Shown here piece after piece: positions 3,685 to 32,370 of a stretch of 53,721 nt of DNA. A program made the position numbers and the translations under genes. Source of the stretch: a virus; UHGV virus genome UHGV-0138535; one strand, 5' to 3'. How positions within the stretch are numbered: the stretch's first letter is position 1; each line of letters starts with the position of its first letter. Below the pieces are notes generated by a model. That model ran no database searches, was not told the DNA's origin, and was given only the letters and a program-made list of their open reading frames with translations.

Positions 3685-3697
3685 GATATTTATCCTT

Positions 3698-4593: not shown

Positions 4594-4601
4594 GATTGGC
4601 C

Positions 4602-4936: not shown

Positions 4937-4948
4937 GATAACACCTCA

Positions 4949-5227: not shown

Positions 5228-5242
5228 CGCTAACCTATTGGA

Positions 5243-6407: not shown

Positions 6408-6437
6408 AATGTCATCTCCGGATGTTTACATTTTGTA

Positions 6438-6728: not shown

Positions 6729-6788
6729 AATTTGATCTCCGTATATCCTTGATGATACTTAATAAAAAATCATCTTCGTTAATTGCCG

Positions 6789-6822
6789 CGCTTCCAGCGG
6801 CTGACCAGATTGTTAATGAGCG
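6789..6822 (-). promoter_or_regulatory. putative nutL (boxA-like CGCTCATTAACA plus boxB-like hairpin CGCTGGAAGCG)
   Basis: Minus-strand boxA-like element then small hairpin about 100 nt upstream of N-like gene; near-identical hairpin at nutR candidate. Confidence 0.3.
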
Positions 6823-7195
6823 GCTTAACATCTTTCAACTAATCCCGCAATCATCGCCGTTCCCGGCGTGACCTTGCTCACTCCAAGCAAGCTGACTCGT
6901 CGCCTTGCGTGCGGTTTCGTGGGGGATGTAACGCTTTAAACACCCCATGCGCCTTGTTATCAGTGCCGCTTTCGGTCCCCCATCGGGGAGTTACTCCACG
7001 GTTGACAAGGTGTTAAGCCTGATTTTTAAAGTGCCAGGAAGTTGCTTTTGTTACCTGCGCCCTTCCTTTGACTCGCAATATACGCCCCGTAAAACATCGA
7101 GTCAATCCATTTTGTATACTTTTTTTAAAATATTTTATATGCCATTGATATTTAAATAATAAATAACGTTTTCTGTTTACGTTTTGGTGTTTTCC

Positions 7196-7224
7196 AGGCA
7201 AAGAAAAGCCGCCATTCGGCGGCT
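7196..7224 (-). terminator. intrinsic terminator downstream of repressor gene
   Basis: Hairpin AGCCGCC-GAAT-GGCGGCT followed by TTTTCTTT on minus strand just after cI stop. Confidence 0.5.
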
Positions 7225-7229
7225 AATGT

Positions 7230-7877
7230 TTATGGCAGGTTTACGATCTTCGCATCAACCACCACGCCTATAATTTTTGATTCTGGATTCATAGGGATTG
7301 GCGGATACAGCGGATTGAGCGAACGTAAAAGCCTTTGACCTCCATCAATAATCAACTGTTTAAACGTCGGTATCTGCCCTTCCTCAAGCTGGGCTATAAC
7401 CAGTTTGCCGTCAATAGCTGGCGCGTGCGGGTCCACAAGTATCATCGTCCCCGCCGGGATGCTCAACCCCTGCGGCGCGTTCATTGATTCACCTTTGGCA
7501 ACCAGCCAGTAACTGTCATCTGAACAAATAACGCTAGTCGTAACGTGTCGTAATGCTGAACGCCTTGCGTCATCCATATTGTTTACTGTGTCCTTCCAGT
7601 CAATAACCGGGTAACTACCTAAATCACGCGGCGGCACGGCCTGAAGTGTATTAGAAACAGAATCATCAATGACCATGCCATCATGTGTAACAGTAAACTG
7701 CCGACGACCAAGCTCGCGCATAATCCGCGCAATATCTTCAAGATTTGGCTCTCGGCGACCGTTCAGCCAGTGTGACAGGCCGCCTTTAGTTATCCCCATA
7801 CGATCCGCGAGTGAATCCTGGCTCATGCCCTGCGCCCGCATGAGCTGCTTTGCTAAGTCATACCATTTTGTTTTCAT
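7230..7877 (-). CDS. CI-like prophage repressor (HTH plus S24 LexA-type peptidase domain)
   Basis: 215 aa; N-terminal HTH (SQDSLADRMGITKGGLSHWLNG), C-terminal peptidase with AKGESM serine motif. Confidence 0.85.
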   Translation of the reverse strand: MKTKWYDLAKQLMRAQGMSQDSLADRMGITKGGLSHWLNGRREPNLEDIARIMRELGRRQFTVTHDGMVIDDSVSNTLQAVPPRDLGSYPVIDWKDTVNNMDDARRSALRHVTTSVICSDDSYWLVAKGESMNAPQGLSIPAGTMILVDPHAPAIDGKLVIAQLEEGQIPTFKQLIIDGGQRLLRSLNPLYPPIPMNPESKIIGVVVDAKIVNLP

Positions 7878-8040
7878 GTCGCTACCCTATAACCTCAAAA
7901 AGTTTGATGCAAGTCACAAAACGTGTATTTTAAGCCTTGATCTTAAAATTCCATTTTGTAAACTTGCAGACAAGGTAAGGCCATACTTGCAAAGACGCAA
8001 GGAAAAAGATAACTGAAGGCACAAAAAGGCACTTACCTTA
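7878..8040. promoter_or_regulatory. immunity-region operator/promoter segment
   Basis: Divergent intergenic region with repeated TGCAAG/CTTGCA half-sites (CTTGCAAAGACGCAAG, CTTGCAGACAAG) and a CCATTTTGTAAACTT motif; no Cro-sized ORF found. Confidence 0.4.
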
Positions 8041-8073
8041 TGCTCTTTAAAAATCCGGTGTCGCTGCGAAGCG
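8041..8073 (+). promoter_or_regulatory. putative nutR (boxA-like TGCTCTTTAAAAA plus boxB-like hairpin CGCTGCGAAGCG)
   Basis: Plus-strand leader of right operon; hairpin nearly identical to nutL candidate. Confidence 0.3.
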
Positions 8074-8182
8074 AAAAACAAATATCACGCAACGGCGGGA
8101 TCTGTTGAGCGGTCAGTCACTGCTATCTAATGCTAATGGGATGCCCGCCCGCGCGTTCACTCTAACCATAGGAGAAAATGCG

Positions 8183-8440
8183 ATGAGTATGAACATGATT
8201 AGTAAAGCATGGAACGTAAAACTTAATAGCCCGATTCAAAAACTTGTCTTAATGGCTCTGGCTGAAAAGGCAGATAACAAAGGACGGGTACATGATGCAT
8301 CACGCAAAGAAGTAGCCGCAATGTGTGAACTTCCTGTTCATACGGTACATGATGCCTTCGCCGCGTTAATGGATAAAGGATTTGTTTGTCGTCTTGATGC
8401 ATTCAGTGATGTCTATGTAGTGATGTTGCCGGAGGGATGA
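8183..8440 (+). CDS. winged-helix DNA-binding protein (HTH_36-like)
   Basis: In-frame ATG at 8183 with GGAGAAAA RBS inside track ORF 8105..8440 (track start is TTG); LNSPIQKLVLMALAEKADNKGRV...VHTVHDAFAALMDKGFV. Confidence 0.6.
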   Translation: MSMNMISKAWNVKLNSPIQKLVLMALAEKADNKGRVHDASRKEVAAMCELPVHTVHDAFAALMDKGFVCRLDAFSDVYVVMLPEG

Positions 8441-8443
8441 TCT

Positions 8444-9496
8444 ATGAAGTGGTTTAAGCATGACAGCGATGCGAACCGCGATGAAAAACTTCAAAACGTT
8501 TTGTTAGATTATGGCCTGGAAGGGTACGGGCTTTATTGGTATTGCCTCGAACTAATAACTTATGACGTAGATCAGCACAATCTGAATTTTGACCTACGAC
8601 ATGACGCGAGAATCATTGCGCGAAACGTCGGATCTACTGAAAAACGTATAGAAGAAATGATGAAATACTTCATCGAAATTGGTTTGTTTGAATGTTCTCA
8701 AGGCCACATAACTTGTTTAAAGTTATTGAAAAGGCTGGACCAATCAATGACTTCTAAAAGCGCTTACAGGGCCGCCATAAACACAGCGAAGGAGCAATTA
8801 AAATTAGAAAAGTTAATCAATCCAACACAAAAAGGTCATGATAGGGTCATGACCGGGTCAGGAAAGGGTCATGAATTAGAATTAGAAGTAGAAAAAGAAA
8901 GAGAAAAAGATATATACACTTCGTGTATTGTCGAAAATGAACAAAAAATGGTCAATCAGGATGGCGTAAACGAAGCGGCATTGCGTTGCCTTGCCTTCTA
9001 CAACGACAAGGCAGGATGCAAATGTCGTGATGCTAAGCCATTCGTAGAACTACTGACAGAAACAAAAACACGTAAAGCGTATACGGAGAATGAGATCACG
9101 TTAGTAATTGAGTGGGCTTTAACCCAATGGCGTAGCCGTGGTGGAGTACCTAAGCCTATCAACATTTGCCGGGTAACTAAATTTGATGGGTATCTGACTG
9201 ATGCTGAACAATGGCGCAAACTGTCAGCCACTGTAAACGCTGCCGACGTGGTGGAAGCATTTAACAGCACGTTTGACGGCCTGTTACCACCTGCCGAACT
9301 GGATCGGGATCTTGAACGCAAGATCTATGCGTTCACTGACTACCTGAAAGACAAAAGCATTAACGGCTTTGTCGCCTACTTCGAAACGTTCAAAAACACG
9401 GCTTCAGATTTTTACTTCGGCGATGGCTTCACCGCGACACTTGATTTCCTGCTTAAACCAAAAACGCTACGTGATACGCGCGCTGGCGTTCTTTGA
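8444..9496 (+). CDS. replication initiation protein (DnaD-like N-terminal replisome organiser domain)
   Basis: 350 aa; N-terminus MKWFKHDSDANRDEKLQNVLLDYGLEGYGLYWYCLE typical of phage replisome organisers; precedes helicase. Confidence 0.7.
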   Translation: MKWFKHDSDANRDEKLQNVLLDYGLEGYGLYWYCLELITYDVDQHNLNFDLRHDARIIARNVGSTEKRIEEMMKYFIEIGLFECSQGHITCLKLLKRLDQSMTSKSAYRAAINTAKEQLKLEKLINPTQKGHDRVMTGSGKGHELELEVEKEREKDIYTSCIVENEQKMVNQDGVNEAALRCLAFYNDKAGCKCRDAKPFVELLTETKTRKAYTENEITLVIEWALTQWRSRGGVPKPINICRVTKFDGYLTDAEQWRKLSATVNAADVVEAFNSTFDGLLPPAELDRDLERKIYAFTDYLKDKSINGFVAYFETFKNTASDFYFGDGFTATLDFLLKPKTLRDTRAGVL

Positions 9497-9629
9497 CCAA
9501 TCACGATCCGCAAAAATCCAAAATTACCCACAAAACAACCTCACCAGCGAGCTAAATCGCATGTGGTGCTACACTTGCTTACCTTTTTGCGATTAGCTCG
9601 TTATAGAGCGTTACGGAGAGGATTTTAAA

Positions 9630-9731
9630 ATGGACGGTAAACACGTTTTCGCCCTGGCTTTTGCCATCGCTGCGGCAATCGCTGTTAACGTCGCCTTGTT
9701 CGGCGGTCTGTACCTGCTAATCAATCCATAA
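9630..9731 (+). CDS. hydrophobic micro-protein (33 aa, single predicted TM helix)
   Basis: ATG preceded by GGAGAGG; MDGKHVFALAFAIAAAIAVNVALFGGLYLLINP; not in track. Confidence 0.35.
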   Translation: MDGKHVFALAFAIAAAIAVNVALFGGLYLLINP

Positions 9732-9870
9732 CCTACCTACCATTCTGTAAATCGAAAATTAGCCACCTGATGGCGTCTCTGACGCAATAAGACACTGCAA
9801 CCTGTGCAAACGGGTGTCGCGGTGGGTTTTTGCGTTGTAGCGCGCATGATGTTCTTAAGGAGTTGGAGCG

Positions 9871-10407
9871 ATGCGCAAGTTAACACATGAAGAACAAGTT
9901 GCAGCTATCGCGAAAGTTAATCCTGATGTTGAAGTGCTGGTTGAAATAGTTAATAACAGTACAAAAGTATTATGCCGCTGCAAGGTTTGTGATCATGAGT
10001 GGTCGGCTAAACCTAGAGACATTAAGAGCGGGCGCGGTTGCCCGAAATGCGCTAAATACGGGTTTTTATCACACTACAACGGAAAACTTTACATCATGGT
10101 TGATGATCTTGAAGTGCCTACACAAATGAAAATTGGTGTAAGCGTAAAAGAGAACGAAAGGAGGAACAGAGTATTTAAAAGTGCTCGTAAGGCAGGTGTA
10201 AGGCTGACTGATTTACAGGTAGTTAAAACATGGAATGGGCCTACTGAGATTATGCAGGAAATAGAAAGCAAAATGCACGATGCTTTCAGTGACTATAAAA
10301 TAAACTTCCCTGTTAAGTTTGATGGTAGCACTGAATTTTTTTATTACAGGCCGGAAGTATTCGACATGGTAGAAGAAACATATAAAGAGATTGTTTGCTG
10401 TCAATAA
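9871..10407 (+). CDS. zinc-ribbon plus T5orf172/GIY-YIG-like domain protein
   Basis: 178 aa; CRCKVCDHEW...CPKCA zinc ribbon; GKLYIMVDD...KIGVS...ENERRNRV...HDAF...GSTEFFYY resembles T5orf172 motifs; AT-rich; own RBS AAGGAG. Confidence 0.55.
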   Translation: MRKLTHEEQVAAIAKVNPDVEVLVEIVNNSTKVLCRCKVCDHEWSAKPRDIKSGRGCPKCAKYGFLSHYNGKLYIMVDDLEVPTQMKIGVSVKENERRNRVFKSARKAGVRLTDLQVVKTWNGPTEIMQEIESKMHDAFSDYKINFPVKFDGSTEFFYYRPEVFDMVEETYKEIVCCQ

Positions 10408-10440
10408 ATATACAAAATGTAAACATGAGGAAATAACATT

Positions 10441-11559
10441 ATGTCGCAAAGAAAAATCAGCGATGAGCAATTGATCGCTGAATATAACAACGGTTTAACG
10501 TACAAGCAGATCGCTGAAAAATATGGCATGTCAAAACGCAACGTCGAGCGGCTGGGCGCAAAGCTGGCGAAACGCGGTTTATTATCAACGCGCCGCGCCC
10601 CTGGTTTTGGCGTTACTGGTGAGTCGGTTCTTGTCGATAAGGATGGGAATACAGTCATGCGCTGGATTAAAACAGCCCGTGATCGCGATGAAATGGAAAG
10701 GCTAATGGAAGCGGCCCGCGACGCTTTCACTGAAGAAATCCCACGCGCGGAGGCCGTGCCAGTGCCGGAAATTGATTTTCAAAAAAGCCTGGCCCTTTAT
10801 CCGGTATTTGATCTGCATATCGGGGCGCTTGCTCATAAAGCTGAATGCGGCGAGAGTTACGACACTGGGATCGCTGAGCGCGTATTGAATGAATTCTTTG
10901 ACTACGCTGTAGGCGCTGCGCCGATGTCTGAGAAAGCTGTTTTGCTTCTCGGTGGGGATGTTCTTCACACTGACGGGCTGTTGCCAGTTACGCCATCAAG
11001 CAATCACGTTCTTGATTGCGATTCGCGCTATGCAAAACTTGTCTATGTAGCGATCAGGTCGGTCCGGCGGGCTGTCGGGAAGATGTTGTTAAATCATAGG
11101 GATATTGAAATCCAGGTACTATCAGGCAATCACGACCAGTCTGGTATGATTTGGCTACGTGCTGCGCTGGCGGCTTTTTACGAAGACGAACCGCGCGTAA
11201 CTGTTGATGTGTCCCCTGCTATCGTCCACCACACACAGTACGGCAAAACATTCCTTGCTTACCACCACGGGCACACTATCAAAAAGCCGGAAAATTTATT
11301 GTCTGCTTGCGTAGCTGACTGGCGTGAGGATTTCGGCAAGTCTGCGGCGGTTTACGCTCATTGCGGGCACTGGCACCATCAACGGCTGATTGAATCATCG
11401 CTAGGCGTTGTTGAGTATCACGGCACATTAGCGGGCAAAGACGCTTATTCAACTAATGGCGGCTGGCGGTCGCGGCGTCTGGCAGCGGTGATTATTTACA
11501 GCCCGGATCATGGGGAGATCGGGCGCTTTGTTTATTACCCTGAACATTCCATTTTGTAA
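10441..11559 (+). CDS. HTH domain fused to calcineurin-like metallophosphoesterase
   Basis: 372 aa; N-terminal sigma-70 region 4-like HTH; phosphoesterase motifs FDLHIG, GGDVLHTDG, GNHD, HHGH, GHWHH. Confidence 0.6.
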   Translation: MSQRKISDEQLIAEYNNGLTYKQIAEKYGMSKRNVERLGAKLAKRGLLSTRRAPGFGVTGESVLVDKDGNTVMRWIKTARDRDEMERLMEAARDAFTEEIPRAEAVPVPEIDFQKSLALYPVFDLHIGALAHKAECGESYDTGIAERVLNEFFDYAVGAAPMSEKAVLLLGGDVLHTDGLLPVTPSSNHVLDCDSRYAKLVYVAIRSVRRAVGKMLLNHRDIEIQVLSGNHDQSGMIWLRAALAAFYEDEPRVTVDVSPAIVHHTQYGKTFLAYHHGHTIKKPENLLSACVADWREDFGKSAAVYAHCGHWHHQRLIESSLGVVEYHGTLAGKDAYSTNGGWRSRRLAAVIIYSPDHGEIGRFVYYPEHSIL

Positions 11560-11577
11560 ACAGGAGGCAATAACATA

Positions 11578-12999
11578 ATGGTAACTGAGCAAATAAACTC
11601 ACTACGGCAGGAACGTGAAGCGTCAGTTATCGGCGGGCTGCTGTTAGGTGGCCTTACTCCTAACGCTCAAGATGTTCTCGCCACACTTGATCCTGAAGTG
11701 TTCACGATCCCGCTTTATAAACGTGCGTTTGAAGTTATCCGGGCGCAAGCCAGAAACAGAAATCTTATCGACGCTTTATTGGTTGGCGATGAAATTGGCA
11801 ATGAAAACTTTGTACCACTGATGCAAACGGCGCGATCGTGTCCTTCTGCTGCCAACCTGAAGGGATACGCACAGCTACTACGTGAAGAGCACCAGCGGCG
11901 GCAGATGTTGGAACTCATCGACGATATGCGCTACAAACTGGAAACGGGGACGCTTGAAGTCGTCAGGGAGACGATGAAAGATTTTGATTCCCGGTATTCA
12001 AAATTAAAGGTAACAAAAGATCAAATTATCCCGGTGCTGTTGCGCGATGCGGTCCAGGAATACACGGAAGTGTTAAGTAAACGCATGGAGTGTGGCGTGA
12101 ACTCTGACAACATCAAAACAGGGATTGACCCACTCGACGAAATGTTAGGCGGCATTAACGCTACTGATCTGGTGCTTATCGCCGGACGCCCAGGGTCTGG
12201 TAAATCGGCGTTGGCGTTGGCAATTGCCCGCGCGGCGGCTGAACGTCCATACCCTGGAGGCGAAGGTCAGCGGGTCGGCGTTTTGCTGTTCACGCTTGAA
12301 ATGTCGCTCGATCAGATGACTGAACGCGCTATCGCTGGCGCGGGTAACTTATCAACGGATTGCCTACGTAATCCGGTAAAACTGGATGACGAAGGTTGGG
12401 CGCACGTAGCACAGGGAATGAGCGCCCTTGCCGATCTCGACGTGTGGATTGTTGACGCATCGCAGTTAACGGTCGAGGAAATACGCGCCACCGTCGAACG
12501 GATGAAACAGGACCATCCTAACCTGGGGATGGTAATGATTGACTACATCGGGTTAATGAAGCTGGCTAAGGCCGAGCGTCATGATCTCGCTGTAGGGCAA
12601 TTGTCGTGGTCATTGAAAATGATGGCGAAGGAGTTGCGCGTGCCAGTAGCGGCACTTGCGCAATTATCCCGCCGCGTTGAGGAACGACCGAACAAGCGCC
12701 CGAACAATTCTGATCTGCGTGATTCCGGTAATCTTGAACAAGACGCAGACCGGATCATCATGGTCTACCGCGACGGCTACTACAACGAACAATCTGTTGC
12801 CCGCGAATACATGGAGATTATCGTTTCAAAAAACCGTCACGGGAAAACGGGTACTGTTTACCAGCGGTTTGATGATAACGGCAACATTTTACCATGCGAC
12901 CAGGCCCGCGCGGCTTCGGCTTGCATTCAGTCTATGCAACAACGTCCGTCTGCAAGCCGATTCTCACCACGAAACAACCAGAATAACGCATCTTTTTAA
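11578..12999 (+). CDS. DnaB-family replicative helicase
   Basis: 473 aa; Walker A GRPGSGKS, DnaB-like N-terminal domain and RecA-like C-terminal motifs. Confidence 0.85.
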   Translation: MVTEQINSLRQEREASVIGGLLLGGLTPNAQDVLATLDPEVFTIPLYKRAFEVIRAQARNRNLIDALLVGDEIGNENFVPLMQTARSCPSAANLKGYAQLLREEHQRRQMLELIDDMRYKLETGTLEVVRETMKDFDSRYSKLKVTKDQIIPVLLRDAVQEYTEVLSKRMECGVNSDNIKTGIDPLDEMLGGINATDLVLIAGRPGSGKSALALAIARAAAERPYPGGEGQRVGVLLFTLEMSLDQMTERAIAGAGNLSTDCLRNPVKLDDEGWAHVAQGMSALADLDVWIVDASQLTVEEIRATVERMKQDHPNLGMVMIDYIGLMKLAKAERHDLAVGQLSWSLKMMAKELRVPVAALAQLSRRVEERPNKRPNNSDLRDSGNLEQDADRIIMVYRDGYYNEQSVAREYMEIIVSKNRHGKTGTVYQRFDDNGNILPCDQARAASACIQSMQQRPSASRFSPRNNQNNASF

Positions 13000-13077
13000 T
13001 TAACTTGAGAAACGGCTTACCGGAAAGTTTACCGCTTTCTGGTGGCTGTTTTCGCGCTTAAATCGAGGCTAGAAACA

Positions 13078-13605
13078 ATGAAAACCATTTATAAAACACA
13101 AATAGCGAAATTTTTACAGGATGCCACTGTTGCTGGTGAAGCAACAATTATTAAATCTATTCCAGGTCCTGAAATCGAGATCGTTAATAGTTTGCGTGAT
13201 ATGGTTTCTGACGGCGCTATTATTCCTGTGGAAATGGGAGGGCCGCGATTATCATATTGCTTGAAGTCAGTGCGCGAAATGGCAATAAAAAAAATCATGC
13301 CTTTATTTCTGAATAGTAGCAATTATTTTTCTGCTGAGGATGTTAAAAAAGAATTAAAACTCGAAATAAAACAGAGGAAAATTTGTCGGGTTTTAAAGAT
13401 GTTAGGCAGTGAAAATTTATTAACAGTTAATAAATTTGATGGGAAATACTTTTTTAGATCAGCTCGCTTCTATGGTTGTTCGAGTCCTATCGTATTTGAA
13501 TTTAACAACCGCCTGAATGAATACCGGAAAAATAACGGCCTGCTGCCGGATAAACCAGTATTTGAGATCGAAAAACTTAACGGTGAAACGGGGTTGGAAT
13601 TATGA
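13078..13605 (+). CDS. hypothetical protein (AT-rich moron)
   Basis: ATG at 13078 with GAGG RBS inside track ORF 13042..13605; markedly AT-rich versus flanks. Confidence 0.45.
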   Translation: MKTIYKTQIAKFLQDATVAGEATIIKSIPGPEIEIVNSLRDMVSDGAIIPVEMGGPRLSYCLKSVREMAIKKIMPLFLNSSNYFSAEDVKKELKLEIKQRKICRVLKMLGSENLLTVNKFDGKYFFRSARFYGCSSPIVFEFNNRLNEYRKNNGLLPDKPVFEIEKLNGETGLEL

Positions 13606-13808
13606 GACGGGTAATCTTTTATTCAGTTGAAACGTTTATTGACGATACGCGCGTTTATTATCCGTGGGAAGTATACGACGCAAAGGTGTATACACCGCCA
13701 CTGATGCGGAAATATAAACACGTAAAATTTAACCGGGTTTTTGTACCAATGCGTGATGCACTGCAGGCGCTGCGCGGTGAATTACGAAACACAATGCGTA
13801 TTGTGTGA
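13602..13808 (+). CDS. hypothetical protein
   Basis: 68-aa track ORF, start overlaps upstream stop. Confidence 0.4.
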   Translation: MRRVIFYSVETFIDDTRVYYPWEVYDAKVYTPPLMRKYKHVKFNRVFVPMRDALQALRGELRNTMRIV

Positions 13809-13817
13809 GGTGGCGTT

Positions 13818-14015
13818 ATGGATAAGGAATTAGATTTAACAGTTGAAGACCTGAGCACGATTGCGGAATACATGCGCGACGATGATCCTGATCGTCCTGT
13901 CGTCGTTGATATGAAAAAACTAAAAAACGACCATATGGCTAGTTCAAGGCTCATTTCTTTATGGGCGATCATGTATGCGCGGGCGCAATGGAAAAATAGC
14001 AACGGTGTATTATGA
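13818..14015 (+). CDS. hypothetical protein
   Basis: 65-aa track ORF; stop overlaps ninB start. Confidence 0.4.
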   Translation: MDKELDLTVEDLSTIAEYMRDDDPDRPVVVDMKKLKNDHMASSRLISLWAIMYARAQWKNSNGVL

Positions 14016-14443
14016 GGCAAATTAGATTTGAGATAGTCAACGACGCCGTGAAAGAAAATGCTATCAGGCAGATAAGGGAAATACAGCCTGATAGCAAAAG
14101 CCCGCTGATAATCACCATCCAGGAGAAAACCCGCTCGCTAAGCCAAAATAGCCTTCTATGGGCGTTGCTAACCGACATTAGTGATCAGGTTAATTGGTAC
14201 GGTAAGAGGCTGTCGCCGGAAGACTGGAAGGCGGTATTCACTGCCGGGCTTAAGAAATATGGCGTTGTCCCTAACCTGGACAAATCAGGCTTTGTTGTGC
14301 TGGGAACATCAACCAGCCGGATGAGTAAAGCGGAATTTAGCGAATTAATCGAACTGATCTACTCGTTCGGCGCTGAGCATGGCGTTCAGTGGTCAGGTGA
14401 TACGAAATTAAACGAGGAATTTATAAAACGCTGGGGGCAATAA
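14012..14443 (+). CDS. ninB: NinB recombination protein
   Basis: 143 aa; closely parallels lambda NinB (TIQEKTRSLSQNSLLWALLTDISDQVNWYGKRL...VVPNL...GFVVLGTSTSRMSKAEFSELIELI). Confidence 0.8.
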   Translation: MRQIRFEIVNDAVKENAIRQIREIQPDSKSPLIITIQEKTRSLSQNSLLWALLTDISDQVNWYGKRLSPEDWKAVFTAGLKKYGVVPNLDKSGFVVLGTSTSRMSKAEFSELIELIYSFGAEHGVQWSGDTKLNEEFIKRWGQ

Positions 14444-14619
14444 TGGTTGAGTATTTTAAAGCTAAACCGACCGGGATTTATTACAAGGTAGAAAATGGTA
14501 ATGTGTTTTATCTTAATCGCGCGGCTAATGAGTGGCGAGAGTGTCAGTGCTACTACCTGAGAGATATTAGAAATCATCCACATTATTTTATTAAAGTTGA
14601 CGATGTACCAGTGGCATAA
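14443..14619 (+). CDS. small hypothetical protein (58 aa)
   Basis: ATG overlapping ninB stop (TAATG); not in track. Confidence 0.35.
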   Translation: MVEYFKAKPTGIYYKVENGNVFYLNRAANEWRECQCYYLRDIRNHPHYFIKVDDVPVA

Positions 14620-14633
14620 TTGAGGATAAACAA

Positions 14634-15290
14634 ATGAGTAAATCAAAAGCAATCGGTGTGATTAGCCATCGCACTAACCCTGAATGCTACCCATCGTTTG
14701 AAGTATCGACATGCAGGGAAGAATATAATTTTGGATCATGTTATTTAGTTGGTGTTCGCGCTGATCGCGGCACTTATTCTGTTATGGCGGCAAGCTGGAA
14801 GTTTGATAAATATGCCAATTTATCTAATAAAGATGATGATGGCATGAACAAAGAAAGTGAAATCATTGACGAATTAATCGAAGATGAGCGGCATGATTGC
14901 GATACGCCAGAAGTTACGGAATGGATGGCAGGAGAAAAGCCTCCATGCGGAGTATGGCTTGAGCTTCTAGATCCTGTCGATGGTCGGAAATATGTTATTC
15001 TGAAATACAAGTATATAAGTGATCGCCTTGCTCTTTTTGTAGAAATGGATGCGCCTGATTTTGAACAAGCCGGGGAATGGAAGCATTTCGCTCATAAGTT
15101 GTATGTAGATCCGAAAGAAAAAATACTGGCTGAAATTGCGTTTGCACTTGCTACTAAGGTTATCGGTGAAGATGCTGCAAAAGAAATTGATTTTAACCGC
15201 GACAACGAATTTTCGTGCGATTATCGCAATATGGCGCAAGCTATTATAGACGGATGTATAGGACACGTTGAATACACGGGGGGTGAATAA
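14634..15290 (+). CDS. hypothetical protein (AT-rich)
   Basis: 218-aa track ORF; AT-rich. Confidence 0.5.
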   Translation: MSKSKAIGVISHRTNPECYPSFEVSTCREEYNFGSCYLVGVRADRGTYSVMAASWKFDKYANLSNKDDDGMNKESEIIDELIEDERHDCDTPEVTEWMAGEKPPCGVWLELLDPVDGRKYVILKYKYISDRLALFVEMDAPDFEQAGEWKHFAHKLYVDPKEKILAEIAFALATKVIGEDAAKEIDFNRDNEFSCDYRNMAQAIIDGCIGHVEYTGGE

Positions 15291-15520
15291 TGGATAAAAC
15301 GGCAACAATTCTTCTTAGTCGCCCTGCCATCTGCCGTATGCTGGGGGGAATTAGCAGGGGAACGTTTTACTTATGGCGTAAAAAGTGGGAACGGAACGGA
15401 ACTCCGTTCCCGGCCCCTGTTGATGTACTTGGTACCGGGCGTGGCGTTATGTACCGCTATCAGGACGTAATGCAGTTCTTTGATCAGATTGGTTTAACGT
15501 CAGCCAAAGATAATACATAA
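15290..15520 (+). CDS. AlpA-family HTH regulator / putative excisionase
   Basis: 76 aa; ICRMLGGISRGTFYLWRKKWERNGTPFPAPVDVLGTGRGVMYRYQDVMQFF matches AlpA/Xis-type HTH; overlaps integrase 3' end convergently by 37 nt. Confidence 0.65.
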   Translation: MDKTATILLSRPAICRMLGGISRGTFYLWRKKWERNGTPFPAPVDVLGTGRGVMYRYQDVMQFFDQIGLTSAKDNT

Positions 15521-16674
15521 TCCGCAAACTTATTTAGTGCCTCCTTTTGTTCATCAAGATAATCATATTTGTCGTACACCGCCAGTATCCCCCTTAATGA
15601 ATGGCCTAAGACCTTTTCTGCAATATGTACCGGAACACCTATAGCTGAAAGGTGTGTCCGGCACGTCCTGCGGAGGTCGTGACAGGACCATGATTTACCG
15701 CCCATCCTTTTACGCACGAATATTGCAGCTACTTTTATCACTGATGCGTTTACTGGCCTGTTGCCGCCGTTAATCACTGGCGGGAATACATAATCATACT
15801 CATGGGAGGTTAAAACCTCCCTGAGCATTTTTATCGACAAGTCAGATAATCCCCGCCTGATTTCACTTCTTGTCTTCGCCACCGCCGCCGGAACGGTCCA
15901 TACACCGTTGTCCAGGTCTAGGTGTTCCCTTCTCATTTTCTGCAATTCACCAACCCTACACCCGGTTAGCAATAATAGCTTTAAGGCTATTTTGTTCTGC
16001 GGATAGATCTGCGAACTGTCTACCGTGCGCCAGAAGTGGCCTATCTCCTCACATGAAAGGTAACGCTCCCCCACCGCATAATGCTCGCCAACGTCAGCTA
16101 CACGGATATTGTTTATCGCCGTGTTAGTCATTAGCCCGCGCCTGATTGCGCTGTTAACGATGATTTTCATTCGCTTCAATATCAAACCAGCCGTAACCGC
16201 GTGACCCGCCGCAGTGATCTCGCCAAATATATCCATCCACTGTTTTGTCGTTACGTCGTCAGCTATGTAGTCGCCGTACTTGTTGACAACATGGCGCATC
16301 AATGCGCTTTTGACTTCTTTATATGCCACCAGCTTAATGACGTTCGGCAGGGATAGATAGTCTTCCACTACGTCTGTTATCGATCTCTTGCCCTGTTCAA
16401 AGGCTATGGCCTGCTTTACGCACAGTGCCGGATTCTTCCCTTTCGTAAGCAACTCCCTGTATTCAGCCACCGCGTAGCGGGCGTCTTTCAGACTCATTTT
16501 CCCGTACTCGCCGATCTTCATTCGCACTGGCTTACCGTTGAATCTGTAACGGTACTGGAAAGTAATTTTTCCTTTTGGACTTATCCTGGCTGACAGGCCG
16601 TCACGATCAGCTATCTCGCTTGGGCCGTCGTATGGCTTGTTGGCGATGGTCCTTAACCTGGTATCCGTAAGCAT
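15484..16674 (-). CDS. int: tyrosine integrase (P4-like, with N-terminal arm-binding domain)
   Basis: Track ORF 15484..16776; likely start ATG 16674 (GGGGG upstream); N-terminal arm-binding-like region, C-terminal catalytic region with HDLRRT and VLGHS. Confidence 0.85.
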   Translation of the reverse strand: MLTDTRLRTIANKPYDGPSEIADRDGLSARISPKGKITFQYRYRFNGKPVRMKIGEYGKMSLKDARYAVAEYRELLTKGKNPALCVKQAIAFEQGKRSITDVVEDYLSLPNVIKLVAYKEVKSALMRHVVNKYGDYIADDVTTKQWMDIFGEITAAGHAVTAGLILKRMKIIVNSAIRRGLMTNTAINNIRVADVGEHYAVGERYLSCEEIGHFWRTVDSSQIYPQNKIALKLLLLTGCRVGELQKMRREHLDLDNGVWTVPAAVAKTRSEIRRGLSDLSIKMLREVLTSHEYDYVFPPVINGGNRPVNASVIKVAAIFVRKRMGGKSWSCHDLRRTCRTHLSAIGVPVHIAEKVLGHSLRGILAVYDKYDYLDEQKEALNKFADYVLSLADVKPI

Positions 16675-16685
16675 GTTGCCCCCAT

Positions 16686-16950
16686 TTTTGGTCACGTTTT
16701 GGTACACAGTTTTTGTTGTACGGATATTAACAGTATTGTACGGAATTAGAAACGTGATGCCGGATTTTGGTTGCAACCGAATGATTTTTAAGTGATTTTA
16801 GTGGCGTAATTGAACGGGGTTAAACACCTTTAAACATAGTGCGCAGGTCCTGTCTGGAATGATTAGTGTAACTAATAATCATTTATAAAACAGAATGTTA
16901 TGTTGTTTTTGATTTTGGTTTTTGATATTTGGTCACTATTTGGTACACAA
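16686..16950. other. candidate attP / integrase arm-site region
   Basis: AT-rich non-coding segment upstream of int flanked by near-identical 24-bp direct repeats (TTTTGGTCACGTTTTGGTACACAG / ATTTGGTCACTATTTGGTACACAA) plus TTGTACGGA and TTTTGGTT repeats. Confidence 0.35.
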
Positions 16951-16977
16951 AAAGAAACGAGGCGTTAGCCTCGTTTC
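16946..16977 (-). terminator. intrinsic terminator at end of tail-fibre operon
   Basis: Hairpin GAAACGAGGC-GTTA-GCCTCGTTTC followed by TTTTT on minus strand. Confidence 0.6.
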
Positions 16978-17020
16978 TCGGCGATGCTTTCAACATCACC
17001 ATGCTATCACTGCCGCATCA

Positions 17021-27291: not shown

Positions 27292-27546
27292 ATGAAACTG
27301 GTAGCGATTGACAGAAATCTGAAAGCACAGAAAAACGCACAGGACCGGATCATCAAGAAAGGTAAGGAATTACTTAAAGCCTTTCTGAGAAAAGAAGTTT
27401 ACCCCAAAAAGTTACGCGACGGTTACGGATACAAAATGGATATCAATCTTGATTGGAGGCTGTTTAGCGAAGATTTGAAGGTTTGGTTAATTGTTGAGCA
27501 CCATGCCTATAACAAGTTATGTGGCGTGAAAGGCACTCATAAGTGA
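27292..27546 (+). CDS. small hypothetical basic protein (84 aa; moron)
   Basis: Track ORF with AAGGA RBS; followed by terminator hairpin. Confidence 0.45.
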   Translation: MKLVAIDRNLKAQKNAQDRIIKKGKELLKAFLRKEVYPKKLRDGYGYKMDINLDWRLFSEDLKVWLIVEHHAYNKLCGVKGTHK

Positions 27547-27597
27547 GTCGAGATATTCGAAAGGGGATATATCGCGCGGAATGGTCGTTTATAAATA

Positions 27598-27638
27598 CGA
27601 AAAATAACCCCGGCATTGCACCGGGGTTTAGTTTATTT
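27598..27638. terminator. bidirectional intrinsic terminator
   Basis: Hairpin CCCCGG-CATTGCA-CCGGGG flanked by A-rich and T-rich runs; overlaps 3' end of tape-measure gene. Confidence 0.5.
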
Positions 27639-29975
27639 GCGGCGAGGTTGCAACATTCCGCCTGGTCTTTGAGATTCCCTTGTTATCATTTTCATGGCTA
27701 CACGTTCCATTGTTAATTCAAGTCTGCGGCTGTCTTCGTCGCTGAATCCGTTCGTGGTCTGAATGCTGATACTGACAGGCATACTAATACCGCCACCGCC
27801 GCCAATATCACGGCCCGGAATAACTCTGCCGTTCTCGCCAGGGATCATATATTGATTGCCGTTAGATGTCTGGAATAGCTCCGGCCTGTTGTGTTCCCCT
27901 ACGCGGTACATATTACCACCAATGACGCTACCACCATTAAAGCGACCGCCGCCGAAAATTGACGTAGCCAGCGACATGATCGCAGTGAGCGCCGCCGAAC
28001 CAGCCGCCGCCCAGCTACCGCCAGTTGACGCCGCAGTTGCCGCCGCTGCTGGGGCCGCCGCCGCAGCAATGCTTCCCTGAGCTGCTACCGCGCTTGCTGT
28101 TGTACTTGTTTGCGTGGCCTTGCTTTGTGTCTCCATCATGATCTGATCTGCTATCCAGTTTGCAGCTATGTCTGAGAGTCTGTTACCGATATTGCCGAGT
28201 ATATTGCTTCCTAAGTTAGCAAAAACATCACTCAATGATTGAGTGCCGTTTAACAGGCCAACAAGCGCATTACTCATTCCGCCTTTAAGGCCATTAACAC
28301 AATCACCGATAAGGCCGTTTGTGTCGCTTTGCGCCTGCCATTGTTCCCATTTCAGATCGCGGATCTGTTGCTCATAGGCTAACAATTCCTGTTTCTGTTG
28401 CGCTTCAGTAGCGCCCAGGTCTATAAGCATTTGCTTACGGATGGCCCATTCATTTTGCGCCTGCTGGATGGGGTCAACTTCGCCTTTTAGCTGATCCATC
28501 GGGCTTACTATTTGTGACCATTTATCACGCAATTCATCTACCGGAATTTGTGCTAATTCTTCTTTCAGTTCCTTGCCGATCCCTTTTTGCGCGGCGCGGT
28601 ACTCAAGGAGCGTGATTTTACCCTGGGCAAATGCAGCATCAATGGCCTTGCCGTTCTCCAACGCTTTGCGCATGGCGGCGGCGTCTTTGTTGTACTGATC
28701 AGAAACGCTTATACCTTTGTCACCAAGCCGATCAGCTTCCGATTTCTTCTCTTTTTTCTGTTTTTTCGGCTTGTCTACTGGCTTGTCGAATCCGGTAATC
28801 GCTCCGTCATTGGCAGCATTCTGTTCATTTTTCCTTGCTTCTTCTGTAGCCTGGATTGCTGCGGTCAGATCATCCTGTAGTTGCATGACCTTGCCAACGG
28901 TCTTCCCGTATTTCTTCTCGTAGTTGCTGTTATATTCGTCGGTTTGCTCTCCTACTACCTCCTTCATCCATTTATAGCCATCCATTAGCGCCTTGATTGG
29001 CGTCACCATTGCGATGATCTTCTCTGCCACCTCTCCAGCCTTAACAGCCACATCATCAAACATGTCGATAAATTCGCTACCAGCCGTTTTGAGTGTGTCG
29101 AAGCAGGTTTTAGCGAATTTAGCGCCATCGCCAAGCCCTTTAACGCCTTTCGTGATCAAGTCGATAGCTGAAACAACGCCATCTGACACGCCAAAAAGAT
29201 CATCCAACTGCTCAACAAGGCCCATAATTTCTACTTTAAGCTCATTGATAGCCATGCCGGATGTGCGCGGCAACTGAGCAAACTTATCGTTTGTTTCCTG
29301 CGTAGCCGCCTGTATTGCGTTAACCATCCTTTCAGCCGTGATCTTGCCGTCCAGCATTTCGGCGCGGAACTGGCCCATTGATAATCCCATATGGCGGGCC
29401 ATTGTTTGTACGATGGTCGGCGTATTTTCAAGCAGGCTGTTAAATTCTTCGGCACGAAGAACACCGCCGTCGATAGACTGACGGAATTGACGCATTGAGT
29501 TAGACATCTGTTCCGCTGACGCGCCGCCTAATGCACCCATTTTCTGAATAGTGCCAACCAGGTTAAGCAATTGCCCTTCCGTAGCGGAGGTGTTTTTTAG
29601 TGAGATAGCCAGGCCTTGCCATAATTCGCCAGTATCTTTCAGGCTCTGCCCCGTCTCCCTGGATATTGCTTTCAGGCCGTCGAAAACCCGTCCGGCGGAC
29701 TCCGCATCGCCCGTAAGCATTTTGATTTTTACGCGAAGCATTTTTGCTTGCTCCGCCATATCCATAAATTGGCGCACAGCCTCCGCAGCAATTAGCAGAT
29801 GGATAACCCTGGTCAGTGCCTTGATGGATGTTTTCAGGGTGTTTACCTGGCGGTCAGCCTGTTTTGCGCCGCGCTCTATACGATCAAAGGCCTGGTCTGC
29901 CTGTCGTTGTGCAACGAGAAGTTGACCAGTTTTCGCATCAACTTCGTAATAAATTGTACCTACACTGGTAGCCAT
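27633..29975 (-). CDS. tail tape measure protein
   Basis: 780 aa; largely alpha-helical, Ala/Gly/Gln-rich, upstream of M-L-K-I-J. Confidence 0.8.
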   Translation of the reverse strand: MATSVGTIYYEVDAKTGQLLVAQRQADQAFDRIERGAKQADRQVNTLKTSIKALTRVIHLLIAAEAVRQFMDMAEQAKMLRVKIKMLTGDAESAGRVFDGLKAISRETGQSLKDTGELWQGLAISLKNTSATEGQLLNLVGTIQKMGALGGASAEQMSNSMRQFRQSIDGGVLRAEEFNSLLENTPTIVQTMARHMGLSMGQFRAEMLDGKITAERMVNAIQAATQETNDKFAQLPRTSGMAINELKVEIMGLVEQLDDLFGVSDGVVSAIDLITKGVKGLGDGAKFAKTCFDTLKTAGSEFIDMFDDVAVKAGEVAEKIIAMVTPIKALMDGYKWMKEVVGEQTDEYNSNYEKKYGKTVGKVMQLQDDLTAAIQATEEARKNEQNAANDGAITGFDKPVDKPKKQKKEKKSEADRLGDKGISVSDQYNKDAAAMRKALENGKAIDAAFAQGKITLLEYRAAQKGIGKELKEELAQIPVDELRDKWSQIVSPMDQLKGEVDPIQQAQNEWAIRKQMLIDLGATEAQQKQELLAYEQQIRDLKWEQWQAQSDTNGLIGDCVNGLKGGMSNALVGLLNGTQSLSDVFANLGSNILGNIGNRLSDIAANWIADQIMMETQSKATQTSTTASAVAAQGSIAAAAAPAAAATAASTGGSWAAAGSAALTAIMSLATSIFGGGRFNGGSVIGGNMYRVGEHNRPELFQTSNGNQYMIPGENGRVIPGRDIGGGGGISMPVSISIQTTNGFSDEDSRRLELTMERVAMKMITRESQRPGGMLQPRRK

Positions 29976-30102
29976 GATTTAACCTCATGCAAAAATGTGA
30001 TCTGTGTATCTATTTTATACAAAATGGCTTTACTTCAACGACTCCATTTTGTATAAGGAAGCTAAAGGGAATGGTCAGTAAATCAAGTTAGCGTGGTGGG
30101 TT

Positions 30103-30762
30103 ATGAAACGGTTAGCAAAAGTGGCAATGATTGCGGCGGTATTGGGTCTGGTTGGTTGCAATGAGGATAATGAAAAAGCGCCTATAGTGACCAATCAAGA
30201 GCAACAAGCATTAGCAGAGAAAAATGCTAAATGGCTTGCAGAACAACAAGCAAAACAAGCCGCATACGATGCACAGTTAGAAAAAGAAAATGCTGGTAAA
30301 CAGTGGCTTGTAGTTGAAAGAAAAGATGATATGCAGGACGCAAAAAACGTATTCCTTTTTGTGAAAGCAGAACAATTCAGCGGAAGTCTTGATGCTTTCC
30401 CGACACTGAAGGCACAGGATAAGAATAAACCGGTATTAACAATCGCTTGCCAGGGTAATAAAACAAAAATGTTCGTAGCATGGTCACACCATGTAACTGA
30501 CGCCGGGGACACTACTTATATTAACTACCGGATCGGCGTTCACAAAGCTGTAGCTACTGAGTGGTGGCGGTCAACTAATTATAAAGCTCTTGGATTATGG
30601 GACGGCAAAAAAGCCATCCCAATGATTAAAAAACTGGTTAACGAAAAACAATTCATCATTGAAGTAGTGCCGGAAGCTGGCGACATTGAGAAAGCAGTGT
30701 TTAACATTGATGGTCTTTATAACCACATCGACAAAGTGAAAAACGCTTGCAACTGGAATTAA
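30103..30762 (+). CDS. lipoprotein (moron, opposite strand within tail operon)
   Basis: 219 aa; signal peptide with lipobox LVGC (MKRLAKVAMIAAVLGLVGC). Confidence 0.6.
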   Translation: MKRLAKVAMIAAVLGLVGCNEDNEKAPIVTNQEQQALAEKNAKWLAEQQAKQAAYDAQLEKENAGKQWLVVERKDDMQDAKNVFLFVKAEQFSGSLDAFPTLKAQDKNKPVLTIACQGNKTKMFVAWSHHVTDAGDTTYINYRIGVHKAVATEWWRSTNYKALGLWDGKKAIPMIKKLVNEKQFIIEVVPEAGDIEKAVFNIDGLYNHIDKVKNACNWN

Positions 30763-30772
30763 GGGGTAAATC

Positions 30773-31147
30773 ATGAAAAAAATAATCAAAGCGGTTCTCA
30801 TTGGTGTTATGGCTTTAGCTCTTACAGGGTGCGCAAGATCAACTGATTTCGTTAAGTTAGCTGATAAAAATTTGCAAGTTGGAATGACTTGTGAGCAAGT
30901 GAATAAAATAATGGGGGAACCACAAAGAATCGAGCATGACGGTAATTATAGTTATCACGTATGGTATTCAGTAACCAGCACGATAGGATTTACTTACATG
31001 GATGTTGAAGAATTATCCCCTTCAAGGGTTATCGCAAAGTTTGATAACTGCATCCTAAAAGAATGGAAAGATCGCAGTAAGGCAAAGTCTGTATACAATA
31101 CAATCACACACAGTTCACCAGGTACAGCAATTAAAGATTTCAATTAG
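30773..31147 (+). CDS. lipoprotein, BamE/SmpA-OmlA-like domain (moron)
   Basis: 124 aa; signal peptide with lipobox LTGC; GMTCEQVNKIMGEPQRIEHDGNYSYHVWY resembles BamE-like fold. Confidence 0.55.
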   Translation: MKKIIKAVLIGVMALALTGCARSTDFVKLADKNLQVGMTCEQVNKIMGEPQRIEHDGNYSYHVWYSVTSTIGFTYMDVEELSPSRVIAKFDNCILKEWKDRSKAKSVYNTITHSSPGTAIKDFN

Positions 31148-31847
31148 CAAAACGCCCGGATCTACCGGGCTTTTCTTGCTCACGATTTTTCATTCTTTCT
31201 AGTGCCTTTTTAGCGGCCTCCATTTGCTCGTCATAAGCACGTTTATTTATGTGAATGTTTGGCTTGCTTCTCTCGTTTCTTTCGTCTGGCGGCGTTTTAG
31301 CGCGTACAACGGCCCTATATCCGGTCATTGTCATATTCCATGCTTCTGATTCTGATAACCCCAGGTGAGCTACGGCAGAATAAACGAATTCCAGCACGTT
31401 AAAAGTCGGCTTATATTCCCCTTCCCGGCTCTCTCCGGCGTCTTCTTCTGGCCCGTCACCGATTAAACCGTGGTACATGCAATGTTGTGCCAGCGTGATA
31501 ACGTCACTGGTCGGCATCAGTCCGGGTTTTAGTCGTAACTTGCCGGAAGAAGTTAACCTACATTCACCCAATAACGGGGCTATTTCGTCGTCTGAGCAAC
31601 ATTTCAGGATGCGCATTGACGTTTGTACTATCTCACCATAACACCGCGCCATAATGCGATTGCGGAGGTCTGGATCTGTAGGCAATCGTGATGGGTATTT
31701 GCTGCCGTGGATAAGTGCGAAATATTCGACAAGCTCACTATCGTTGCCAATTTTAGCCATCGCAGCAAAGCAAGGATTAAACTCATAGCGCTTACCGTTC
31801 ACCACAGCCGCAAATTGTCCTGTACGAACATGGATCATAGTATTCAC
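31140..31847 (-). CDS. putative tail assembly chaperone
   Basis: 235-aa track ORF; only co-oriented gene between major tail and tape-measure genes; assignment by position. Confidence 0.4.
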   Translation of the reverse strand: MNTMIHVRTGQFAAVVNGKRYEFNPCFAAMAKIGNDSELVEYFALIHGSKYPSRLPTDPDLRNRIMARCYGEIVQTSMRILKCCSDDEIAPLLGECRLTSSGKLRLKPGLMPTSDVITLAQHCMYHGLIGDGPEEDAGESREGEYKPTFNVLEFVYSAVAHLGLSESEAWNMTMTGYRAVVRAKTPPDERNERSKPNIHINKRAYDEQMEAAKKALERMKNREQEKPGRSGRFAN

Positions 31848-31893: not shown

Positions 31894-32370
31894 TTATGCT
31901 GGCGGAACGTCGCCTACCGTTACCTTGCCAGCGCTTTCGCACTCAATGGACCAGGTGGAAACATTATCGTGTGGATCTTCTTCTTTAAAGGAAGTGCAAA
32001 GGAATGGGCCTTCAGTTACGTCTACAGGAGAAACGATCTTCAGCCATACATAAGGTTGTGATCCGGTGGTTTCACCTGGCGTAATTACGTGGCGTTTCAG
32101 CGCTTTCTGATTATGGATTTCTTCAGTGCGGGACACACCGTCGCCGGAGAAAGAAACGGATTTGTAAGTAACCATTGATTCTTTCGTGTAATCGGCTGAT
32201 TTATCGGCGGTGGCGTCAGCGGTTTCCCATTCAACGGAAAGTGTTTTACCACGCATCATGCCTAACGCTTTGTACGCTCCAGTTTCCGGCTTCGCATTTG
32301 GACAAGCGATAGCGAAGAATACAGCAACGTCACGGCCTGTAAACGTGCCTTTTTCGCAAGTCTGAGACAT
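31894..32370 (-). CDS. putative major tail protein
   Basis: 158 aa; position upstream of chaperone and TMP. Confidence 0.5.
   Translation of the reverse strand: MSQTCEKGTFTGRDVAVFFAIACPNAKPETGAYKALGMMRGKTLSVEWETADATADKSADYTKESMVTYKSVSFSGDGVSRTEEIHNQKALKRHVITPGETTGSQPYVWLKIVSPVDVTEGPFLCTSFKEEDPHDNVSTWSIECESAGKVTVGDVPPA

Follow-up and report, generated by a model that had tools for sequence, protein, structure and literature searches.

Two lipoprotein genes in an exchangeable cargo slot of the tail operon of an mEpimmI-group prophage of Escherichia coli and their possible role in protection against incoming phages

The virulent phage T4 produces, from early lytic genes, two small and separate envelope proteins, Imm and Sp, which halt a second phage while it crosses the envelope. 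The product of the archetypal moron, HK97 gp15, for which exclusion is proven, blocks genome entry without touching the receptor (Cumby et al. 2012, summarised in PMC3594210). Gp15 belongs to the YebO family and is one small protein of the inner membrane; its gene has the same orientation as the tail genes and forms an independent transcription unit of deviating GC (guanine plus cytosine) content between the tail-chaperone and tape-measure genes. Phage-encoded lipoproteins are represented by Cor of phi80 and N15, by Llp of T5 and by Lpp021 and Lpp010, the latter two being experimentally proven exclusion lipoproteins of the mEpimmI phages, all of which have one common immunity (PMC11893012). 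In the present study, a further pair of phage lipoprotein genes, ORF1 and ORF2, was analyzed in the virus genome UHGV-0138535 (53,721 nucleotides, nt; this whole stretch is referred to as the window). Neither gene is described in the mEpimmI paper or its supplements (PMC11893012). The ORF1-ORF2 cassette lies at the position of HK97 gp15, and its architecture is therefore unsurprising. Like gp15, it is proposed to form an independent transcription unit of deviating GC content with envelope-located products. In comparison with gp15, it specifies two outer-membrane-type lipoproteins with predicted VasI/IalB and BamE/BLIP folds and is oriented opposite to the tail genes; exclusion has been demonstrated for gp15, whereas it is inferred for the cassette. 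Accordingly, accessory cassettes encoding envelope proteins within tail operons are of a known kind, and what is new are the cargo families and the wide spread of the VasI domain in phages independently of type VI secretion systems (T6SS).

This region was shown to be a horizontally exchanged accessory ('moron') cassette residing in a dedicated cargo slot of the tail operon. The slot and its immediate surroundings comprise the following features:

27633..29975, minus strand: tape-measure gene, left flank of the slot (PF20155 TMP_3, E 1e-49; phrog_1538, E 2e-159)
29976..30102, plus strand: control region from the tape-measure start codon to ORF1, nearly invariant in seven relatives with four cargos
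30103..30762, plus strand: ORF1, encoding a lipoprotein of 219 amino acids (aa; lipobox LVGC; PF11319)
30773..31147, plus strand: ORF2, encoding a 124-aa lipoprotein (lipobox LTGC; phrog_18614)
31140..31847, minus strand: DUF6246/phrog_791 gene, right flank of the slot (PF19759, E 4e-55)
31154..31170, both strands: bidirectional intrinsic terminator hairpin GCCCGGATCTACCGGGC followed by a T run, from a terminator scan
31894..32370, minus strand: tail-tube gene

The insert has a GC content of 38–41%, compared with approximately 49% in its flanks. Together with the left region of approximately 125 nt, the first codons (MKRLAK...) of several cargos are nearly invariant. The right-hand edge is formed by the terminator hairpin, which is located inside the last codons of the DUF6246 gene and scores on both strands; neither its stems (GCCCGG/CCGGGC) nor the T run vary among six relatives with different cargo, and the cargo-specific sequence stops just short of it. 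ORF1 and ORF2 are separated by 10 nt and are each preceded by their own Shine-Dalgarno sequence (GGTGG before ORF1, GGGG before ORF2), and the final 8 nt of ORF2 are shared with the convergent 3' end of the DUF6246 gene.

In order to survey the slot, the distance to the tape-measure gene was measured in 76 IMG/VR loci encoding DUF6246 relatives. In 12 distant relatives, the slot is empty (an empty slot being one of at most 300 nt), and the DUF6246 and tape-measure genes abut (-12 to 160 nt), as would be anticipated of a chaperone gene paired with a tape-measure gene. Members of the E. coli group have a slot of 650–1285 nt that is filled with cargo. The cargo was catalogued for the 64 IMG/VR loci featuring both flanks, many of which represent near-identical prophages. 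A VasI lipoprotein of the ORF1 type was found in 16 of these loci, namely together with ORF2 (eight loci), with an unrelated 106-aa protein (seven loci) or alone (one locus). ORF2 was present in nine loci, eight times with ORF1 and once with a protein resembling mEp021 gp63. This gp63-like type, a 138-aa Sec-exported protein, occurred in 15/64 loci, a 100-aa protein with a predicted pair of transmembrane segments in 9/64, and the remaining cargos include several further proteins with Sec signals and lipoproteins. At least ten different cargos exist among close relatives, and nearly all of them are exported or membrane proteins. Searching ten alternative slot cargos against Pfam yielded nothing informative. 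Gp63 itself, the cargo of mEp021 at the corresponding site, carries no annotation as a virion protein, whereas its neighbours do.

Since each of the two genes occurs without the other, ORF1 and ORF2 are regarded as independent modules: ORF1 stands alone in the E. coli prophage L011, and mEp013 and the locus L092 carry ORF2 but no ORF1, L092 having a different partner again. An obligate two-component system was thus rejected. The original prediction, which had likened the pair to prophage morons inserted in the tail operon, stands with regard to the opposite strand, the low GC content, the conserved terminator and the absence or replacement of the genes in relatives; for the promoter, only a conserved sigma-70-like match was obtained. 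Moreover, the slot represents a defined exchange site that collects almost exclusively exported proteins and hence provides a natural catalogue of uncharacterised candidate envelope-acting phage factors.

The window corresponds to an mEpimmI-group (mEp021-like) prophage of E. coli, i.e., to the Nus-dependent siphoviruses. A 1.4-kb segment spanning the cassette (29900–31300) is 100% identical to the chromosome of E. coli MS 21-1, and the cassette flanks share 86–94% identity with the phages mEp021, mEp010, mEp044, mEp554 and MagusPhagus. On the minus strand, the tail module is arranged in the order tail tube, DUF6246, tape measure and then M, L, K, I and J. A tail-assembly-chaperone role of the DUF6246 gene is inferred solely from its position between the tail-tube and tape-measure genes; a sequence search of the DUF6246 protein against the PDB returned no match.

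In the signal peptide at the start of both proteins, a basic n-region and a hydrophobic core precede a canonical lipobox. In ORF1 (N-terminus MKRLAKVAMIAAVLGLVGC), LVGC occupies residues 16–19 with the codon of Cys19 at 30157–30159, and in ORF2 (N-terminus MKKIIKAVLIGVMALALTGC), LTGC occupies residues 17–20 with the codon of Cys20 at 30830–30832. A lipobox was defined as [LVI][ASTVI][GAS]C, plausibly spaced from the N-terminus and kept in homologues; its Gly-Cys pair is invariant in 9/9 sequences of the ORF1 alignment and likewise in 9/9 sequences of the ORF2 alignment. The residue at position +2 is Asn in ORF1 and Ala in ORF2. Following the Lol rule of E. coli, Asn or Ala at this position predicts the outer membrane, and outer-membrane sorting is therefore expected for both proteins. 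The ORF1 homologue P0007 features Asp-Glu at +2/+3. Both ORFs match PHROG families (E < 1e-57) and are under purifying selection, with ratios of nonsynonymous to synonymous substitutions (dN/dS) of about 0.2 for ORF1 and 0.07–0.10 for ORF2 (overall range 0.07–0.26). Invariant lipoboxes and purifying selection confirm the earlier observation of two plus-strand lipobox genes between the minus-strand tape-measure gene and the gene in chaperone position: coordinates, strand and signal peptides were correct, and the lipoprotein assignments were borne out at the sequence level.

A six-frame scan of the whole window with a lipobox expression detected eight loci. Judging by eye from the N-termini, only ORF1, ORF2 and an Rz1-like o-spanin look like true lipoproteins. 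The third of these is encoded in the lysis module (43224–43418, minus strand) and is unrelated to the cassette.

The domain content of ORF1 had been overlooked previously. Residues 55–218 match positions 25–184 of the 184-position Pfam profile PF11319 (VasI) with 58.1 bits (cut-off 26.5; E 1.2e-15). Because this threshold is passed, PGAP names the protein "type VI secretion system-associated protein TagO". In a profile search covering 1.84 billion representative proteins (E up to 1e-3), 1900 relatives were found, with a match region of approximately ORF1 residues 60–218. An alignment of 101 relatives, all of which match PF11319, showed C116, T121, R143, C216 and W218 to be invariant. The invariance of Cys116 and Cys216 suggests a conserved disulfide bond as for a periplasmic domain. 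With VasI/TagO of Vibrio cholerae (VCA0118), ORF1 has in common the PF11319 domain, export, the C-terminal ...ACxW motif and the two conserved Cys residues. Typical VasI members feature a signal peptide followed by a C...RLxCYD motif, whereas ORF1 and its near relatives lack this motif and possess a lipobox and a Gln/Ala/Lys-rich helical segment in its place. The AlphaFold2 model of ORF1 (mean predicted local distance difference test, pLDDT, of 90; predicted template-modelling score, pTM, of 0.78) features a long helix (residues 31–63) and then a beta-sandwich. The predicted layout thus consists of the signal peptide, a short tether, the helix and a VasI/IalB-like beta-sandwich at residues ~60–218 (nt 30280–30756). 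Searching the ORF1 family profile by sequence against solved structures gave no match. A fold search of the model in BFVD retrieved uncharacterised phage proteins only.

Among these fold matches (Foldseek E-values of 1e-5 to 7e-3) are uncharacterised proteins of approximately 200 aa from the virulent T4-like phages Klebsiella KP15, Escherichia RB16, Aeromonas 65.2, Vibrio nt-1 and VH7D. The ORF1 fold is therefore not confined to temperate phages.

ORF2 belongs to phrog_18614, a family to which no function is assigned, and its homologues are nearly confined to the DUF6246-to-tape-measure slot of phages. The model of ORF2 predicts a BamE/OsmE/BLIP-like fold for the core residues 26–100, i.e., a small alpha-alpha-beta-beta...beta-beta arrangement, and BamE and OsmE are lipoproteins as well. 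In contrast to these proteins, ORF2 has an additional Cys40-Cys93 pair, both residues of which are invariant among the aligned homologues, and a C-terminal tail. Matches to the BamE profile PF04355 (18.9 bits, cut-off 23.2, residues 33–51 only), to OsmE (NF008423, 17.8 bits, cut-off 65) and to DUF7738 are all below cut-off and cover the first helices only. The proposed resemblance of ORF2 to BamE/SmpA-OmlA is consequently a statement on its modelled fold, for which it is tentatively retained, and membership in the BamE family was rejected.

VasI-domain genes recur at accessory positions of unrelated phages, outside the structural and replication modules. In Brucella phage BiPBO1, such a gene directly follows the repressor gene and is co-oriented with it. 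In a lambdoid contig, it starts 13 nt after an HTH_3 plus Peptidase_S24 repressor gene and encodes a zinc ribbon and a transmembrane anchor, and in a Labrenzia phage it is two genes away from CI. Furthermore, P2-like phages carry it behind a zinc-ribbon membrane protein gene at the integrase end of the prophage, and Pasteurella phage Pmp14 within a cargo island after the tail-chaperone genes. In one of the 101 relatives (P0086 from Carnimonas bestiolae), an N-terminal T4 Imm domain (PF14373, E 1.7e-14) is fused to VasI, and this fusion gene is located in the same DUF6246-to-tape-measure slot of a related Carnimonas siphophage.

Two of these loci showed further peculiarities. On the Carnimonas bestiolae contig (L010, 6242–8846), the same slot harbors a KilA-N/ORF6C gene and two Arc-type repressor genes, resembling the immI set of P22, followed by the Imm-VasI gene. 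In Pasteurella phage Pmp14_0014 (L153), the VasI-like gene is located within the tail module and adjoins a gene (4082–6040) for a 652-aa protein with HATPase_c_3 plus HSDR_N/PD-(D/E)XK nuclease domains, probably a defence gene.

Loci anchored on the N-terminus of J were used to tabulate the slot cargo against the C-terminal type of J and against the gene lying downstream of J. The genes concerned in the window are the following:

19577..24547, minus strand: J (tail-tip) gene
19235..19537, plus strand: open reading frame of a small secreted protein (81 aa from the likeliest start at 19292), convergent to and just downstream of J

The VasI lipoprotein was found with the J type of the window (nine loci), in phages of the Lpp010 type (three loci) and with two other J types, and the gp63-like cargo occurs with both main J types. 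In total, ORF1/ORF2 accompany at least three J C-terminal types, and in the window they are located ~5.5 kb from the J start codon. Slot cargo therefore assorts freely with the J C-terminal type, the mixing being clear although near-identical prophages inflate the apparent independence of the loci. It follows that the role of ORF1/ORF2 is not matched to the receptor of the phage itself.

The Lpp proteins share with ORF1/ORF2 the phage group, an origin in the structural-gene region and, as presumed for ORF1/ORF2, expression independent of the tail genes. However, they are small (precursors of 72–82 aa), are encoded just downstream of J and follow the receptor class, whereas ORF1/ORF2 reside in another slot without a link to J. 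Alignments of ORF1/ORF2 with Lpp021 (type A) and Lpp010 (type C) cover the signal peptides only (E 7e-5 and 2e-4; residues 1–26 and 1–21), and a tblastn search with Lpp021 and Lpp010 against the window gave no match. Lpp010 accompanies J types other than that of the window. The idea that the cassette substitutes for a missing Lpp protein was rejected, as three contigs contain both the VasI lipoprotein and Lpp010, and as the window itself encodes a J-linked secreted protein at the Lpp position.

The latter protein (MKKLIVACILSALSFGAFA/S...) is encoded at the site used for the exclusion lipoproteins in mEp021 and mEp010. Because it is linked to the window-type J C-terminus in 12/12 cases, it is a better candidate than ORF1/ORF2 for receptor-matched exclusion. 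Its 'IVAC' fits the lipobox expression of PMC11893012 but is only four residues away from the N-terminus and unlikely to be a genuine lipobox; a Pfam search with this protein gave no match.

Based on genomic context and by analogy to HK97 gp15 and T4 Imm/Sp, we tentatively propose that the cassette protects the phage-carrying cell independently of the receptor, at the stage when an incoming phage crosses the envelope, and we place this reading just short of an even chance. ORF1 and ORF2 would be exported by Sec and lipidated at Cys19 and Cys20, respectively, after which Lol would deliver them to the outer membrane (inner leaflet). From there, ORF1 is predicted to extend a helical stalk of ~33 residues into the periplasm that carries a VasI/IalB-fold beta-sandwich stabilised by a disulfide bond, and ORF2 to expose a small module of the BamE/OsmE/BLIP fold, which is often used for binding or inhibiting other proteins. 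In the periplasm, each protein would exert its protective effect on the cell independently of the other, which is the least certain step and is deduced from context. The likeliest mode would be interference with the tail tip, tape measure, ejection proteins or wall-degrading enzymes of the incoming phage, that is, an exclusion of the HK97 gp15 or T4 Imm/Sp kind and not the receptor masking practised by Cor, Llp and Lpp. The protective role is suggested by the position shared with HK97 gp15, by the Imm-VasI fusion in the same slot and by the placement of VasI genes beside repressor genes, near CI in the Labrenzia phage, at the prophage end of P2-like phages and next to the defence-like gene of Pmp14. 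Classical receptor masking is disfavoured by the lack of linkage to J type and of homology to Lpp021/Lpp010. The proposed logic, two separate small proteins halting a second phage at envelope crossing, is that of T4 Imm and Sp; however, ORF1 and ORF2 have no sequence similarity to Imm, and neither a YebO nor an Imm_superinfect (PF14373) domain was detected in them at E-values up to 1.

Several results weigh against a protective role. ORF1 and ORF2 matched neither the PADLOC defence models nor characterised exclusion proteins. The Imm-VasI fusion is a lone case, found in one of the 18 relatives of P0086; it was therefore rejected as a recurrent architecture and serves as a pointer instead of a pattern. 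Cargo counts do not represent independent events, given the many near-identical prophages, and the fold assignment of ORF2 depends on a model of pLDDT 70 built from nine close sequences. In V. cholerae, VasI promotes T6SS killing and blocks nothing (PMC3166118). Finally, the phage repressor may silence the cassette in the lysogen, which would limit its action to the time after infection or induction; this possibility arises because the promoter lies within a conserved inverted repeat and the associated motif is found again in the cI-cro region as well as next to a PL-like promoter, as detailed below.

Alternatively, ORF1 and ORF2 may be general factors of lysogenic conversion or envelope fitness that are not aimed at phages and benefit the lysogen in the gut. 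The IalB-like fold of ORF1 and the OsmE/BamE-like fold of ORF2 would fit changes in adhesion or invasion, in tolerance of osmotic or envelope stress, or in outer-membrane protein assembly. However, likeness of fold is not likeness of function, and IalB, OsmE and BamE share only 9–15% identity with the cassette proteins. Moreover, the recurrent placement next to repressor genes and the Imm fusion point to conflict between phages, and the slot occupies the position of a moron with proven exclusion activity. A fitness function of this type is thus considered unlikely, albeit worth keeping in view.

The timing of expression bears on a further explanation, in which the cassette is repressed in the lysogen and switched on after infection or induction, thereby modifying the envelope of the infected cell. 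It could then block secondary infection during the latent period or, as Llp of T5, save progeny from loss to cell debris. A promoter-like sequence read by eye upstream of ORF1 consists of a -35 element TTTACT (30029–30034), a 17-nt spacer and a -10 element TATAAG (30052–30057), representing a conserved 9/12 sigma-70-like match. A strict consensus promoter scan upstream of ORF1 found nothing, since the -10 element ends in G. Around the -35 element, a perfect 13-nt inverted repeat (TTATACAAAATGG, 30015–30027; CCATTTTGTATAA, 30044–30056) was observed, the second arm of which overlaps the spacer and the -10 element. Conservation of this repeat in 7/7 relatives compared, together with the one immunity shared by the mEpimmI phages (PMC11893012), speaks for this explanation. 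The repeat contains a 12-nt motif, T[AT]TACAAAATGG, that is over-represented in the window; for a 15-nt version with up to three mismatches, 12 matches were counted compared with 3.5 +/- 1.7 expected. Sites of the 12-nt motif are located as follows:

30016 and 30044: inverted pair at the ORF1-ORF2 cargo slot
26968 and 27037: inverted pair preceding a second plus-strand cargo slot in the tail operon
7107: directly upstream of a leftward PL-like promoter, itself just downstream of the cI-like gene (7230..7877)
7951: cI-cro intergenic region, with two related copies
10409: further site
11549: further site
53317 and 53384: inverted pair near 53.3 kb

Three promoter-like sites, those of ORF1, of the second cargo slot and beside the cI region, have a common layout of motif, 1 nt, -35 element, 17 nt and -10 element. 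The occurrence of the motif in the cI-cro region and beside the PL-like promoter likewise counts in favour of the lytic or early explanation. However, the motif is directional and placed at approximately -38 to -48, which is the position expected of a proximal UP element or of an activator site, and for this reason it may enhance rather than repress transcription. Judging from sequence and placement, the motif may serve as an operator half-site for the shared mEpimmI repressor, as an activator site or as a proximal UP-like element. Which of these applies would settle whether expression of the cassette takes place in the lysogen or is confined to the time after infection or induction. No definition of the mEpimmI operator was found in the literature, and the mEpimmI paper and its supplements contain no operator sequences (PMC11893012). 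Expression confined to the lytic cycle would, moreover, be opposed by late transcription of the tail operon, which runs antisense through the cassette, and VasI genes situated right after repressor genes in other phages argue for expression in the lysogen. In view of these points, a purely lytic or early role appears distinctly unlikely.

Upstream of the promoter-like sequence, TGTGAT at 29996–30001 (within AAATGTGATCT) represents a perfect left half-site for CRP and is invariant in seven relatives; the right half-site is poor. The center of this site precedes the predicted start of ORF1 transcription by ~60 nt; on the other strand, the site is 21 nt upstream of the tape-measure start codon.

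The PGAP name raises the question of a connection to T6SS, such that ORF1 would serve a T6SS of the host or that the pair, as orphan immunity, would shield the periplasm of the lysogen from T6SS attack. Such a role is considered improbable. To our knowledge, the genus Brucella has no T6SS, and yet a VasI gene is carried by a Brucella phage. Against the T6SS equivalog model TIGR03360, ORF1 reaches 47.4 bits, far below the cut-off of 124.2, and it lacks the C...RLxCYD motif. Of seven homologue contexts with readable flanks, all phages or small islands, none contained a T6SS gene, and ORF1 itself resides in a siphovirus tail operon and not in a T6SS cluster. ORF1 was therefore rejected as a T6SS component on account of the TIGR03360 cut-off, the genomic context and the N-terminal motif, and the name TagO on prophage genes of this type is probably misleading. 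Moreover, TagO/VasI is listed without an assigned function in a 2026 review (PMC13584744), and VCA0118 of V. cholerae, which is no immunity protein, is required for T6SS killing but not for secretion (PMC3166118).

As a wider and frankly speculative idea, the VasI/IalB fold might be a general periplasmic module recognising membrane-puncturing injection devices, be they incoming phage tails or T6SS spikes; we regard this as a long shot. If true, temperate phages from numerous lineages would deploy the module by means of a lipid, a transmembrane segment or an Imm anchor, and T6SS clusters would use it to guide or tolerate their own spike. The label 'T6SS-associated' of TagO would then be a by-product of a wider role in phage conflict, and the cassette would offer a tractable E. 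coli model. The function of VasI/TagO has remained elusive after 15 years of T6SS research, and the phage versions would provide a simple genetic handle on its binding partner if they confer a readily scorable phenotype such as exclusion.

That the two ORFs are non-functional or mis-called within a long intergenic spacer is barely conceivable and effectively refuted by the conservation pattern, namely the low dN/dS ratios, the retention of lipobox and Cys pairs in homologues down to 54–64% identity, the confident fold and significant Pfam match of ORF1 and the PHROG matches of both ORFs.

Regarding the remainder of the window, the part left of ~17 kb does not match the neighbourhood of the MS 21-1 prophage (zntB, dbpA, ttcA). 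Positions ~1–17000 comprise phage early genes instead, including the cI-like repressor gene (7230–7877), a replication-type gene and a DnaB-like gene (11578–12999), so that the window cannot simply be equated with the MS 21-1 prophage as it lies in the chromosome.

The second plus-strand cargo slot (26952–27632; GC content 39–41%) extends from the minor-tail gene to the tape-measure gene. It contains an 84-aa ORF (27292–27546, plus strand) with a ParE-like toxin domain (PF24732, E 9e-12), and the 51-aa ORF located upstream of it (27119–27274, plus strand) could encode the antitoxin.

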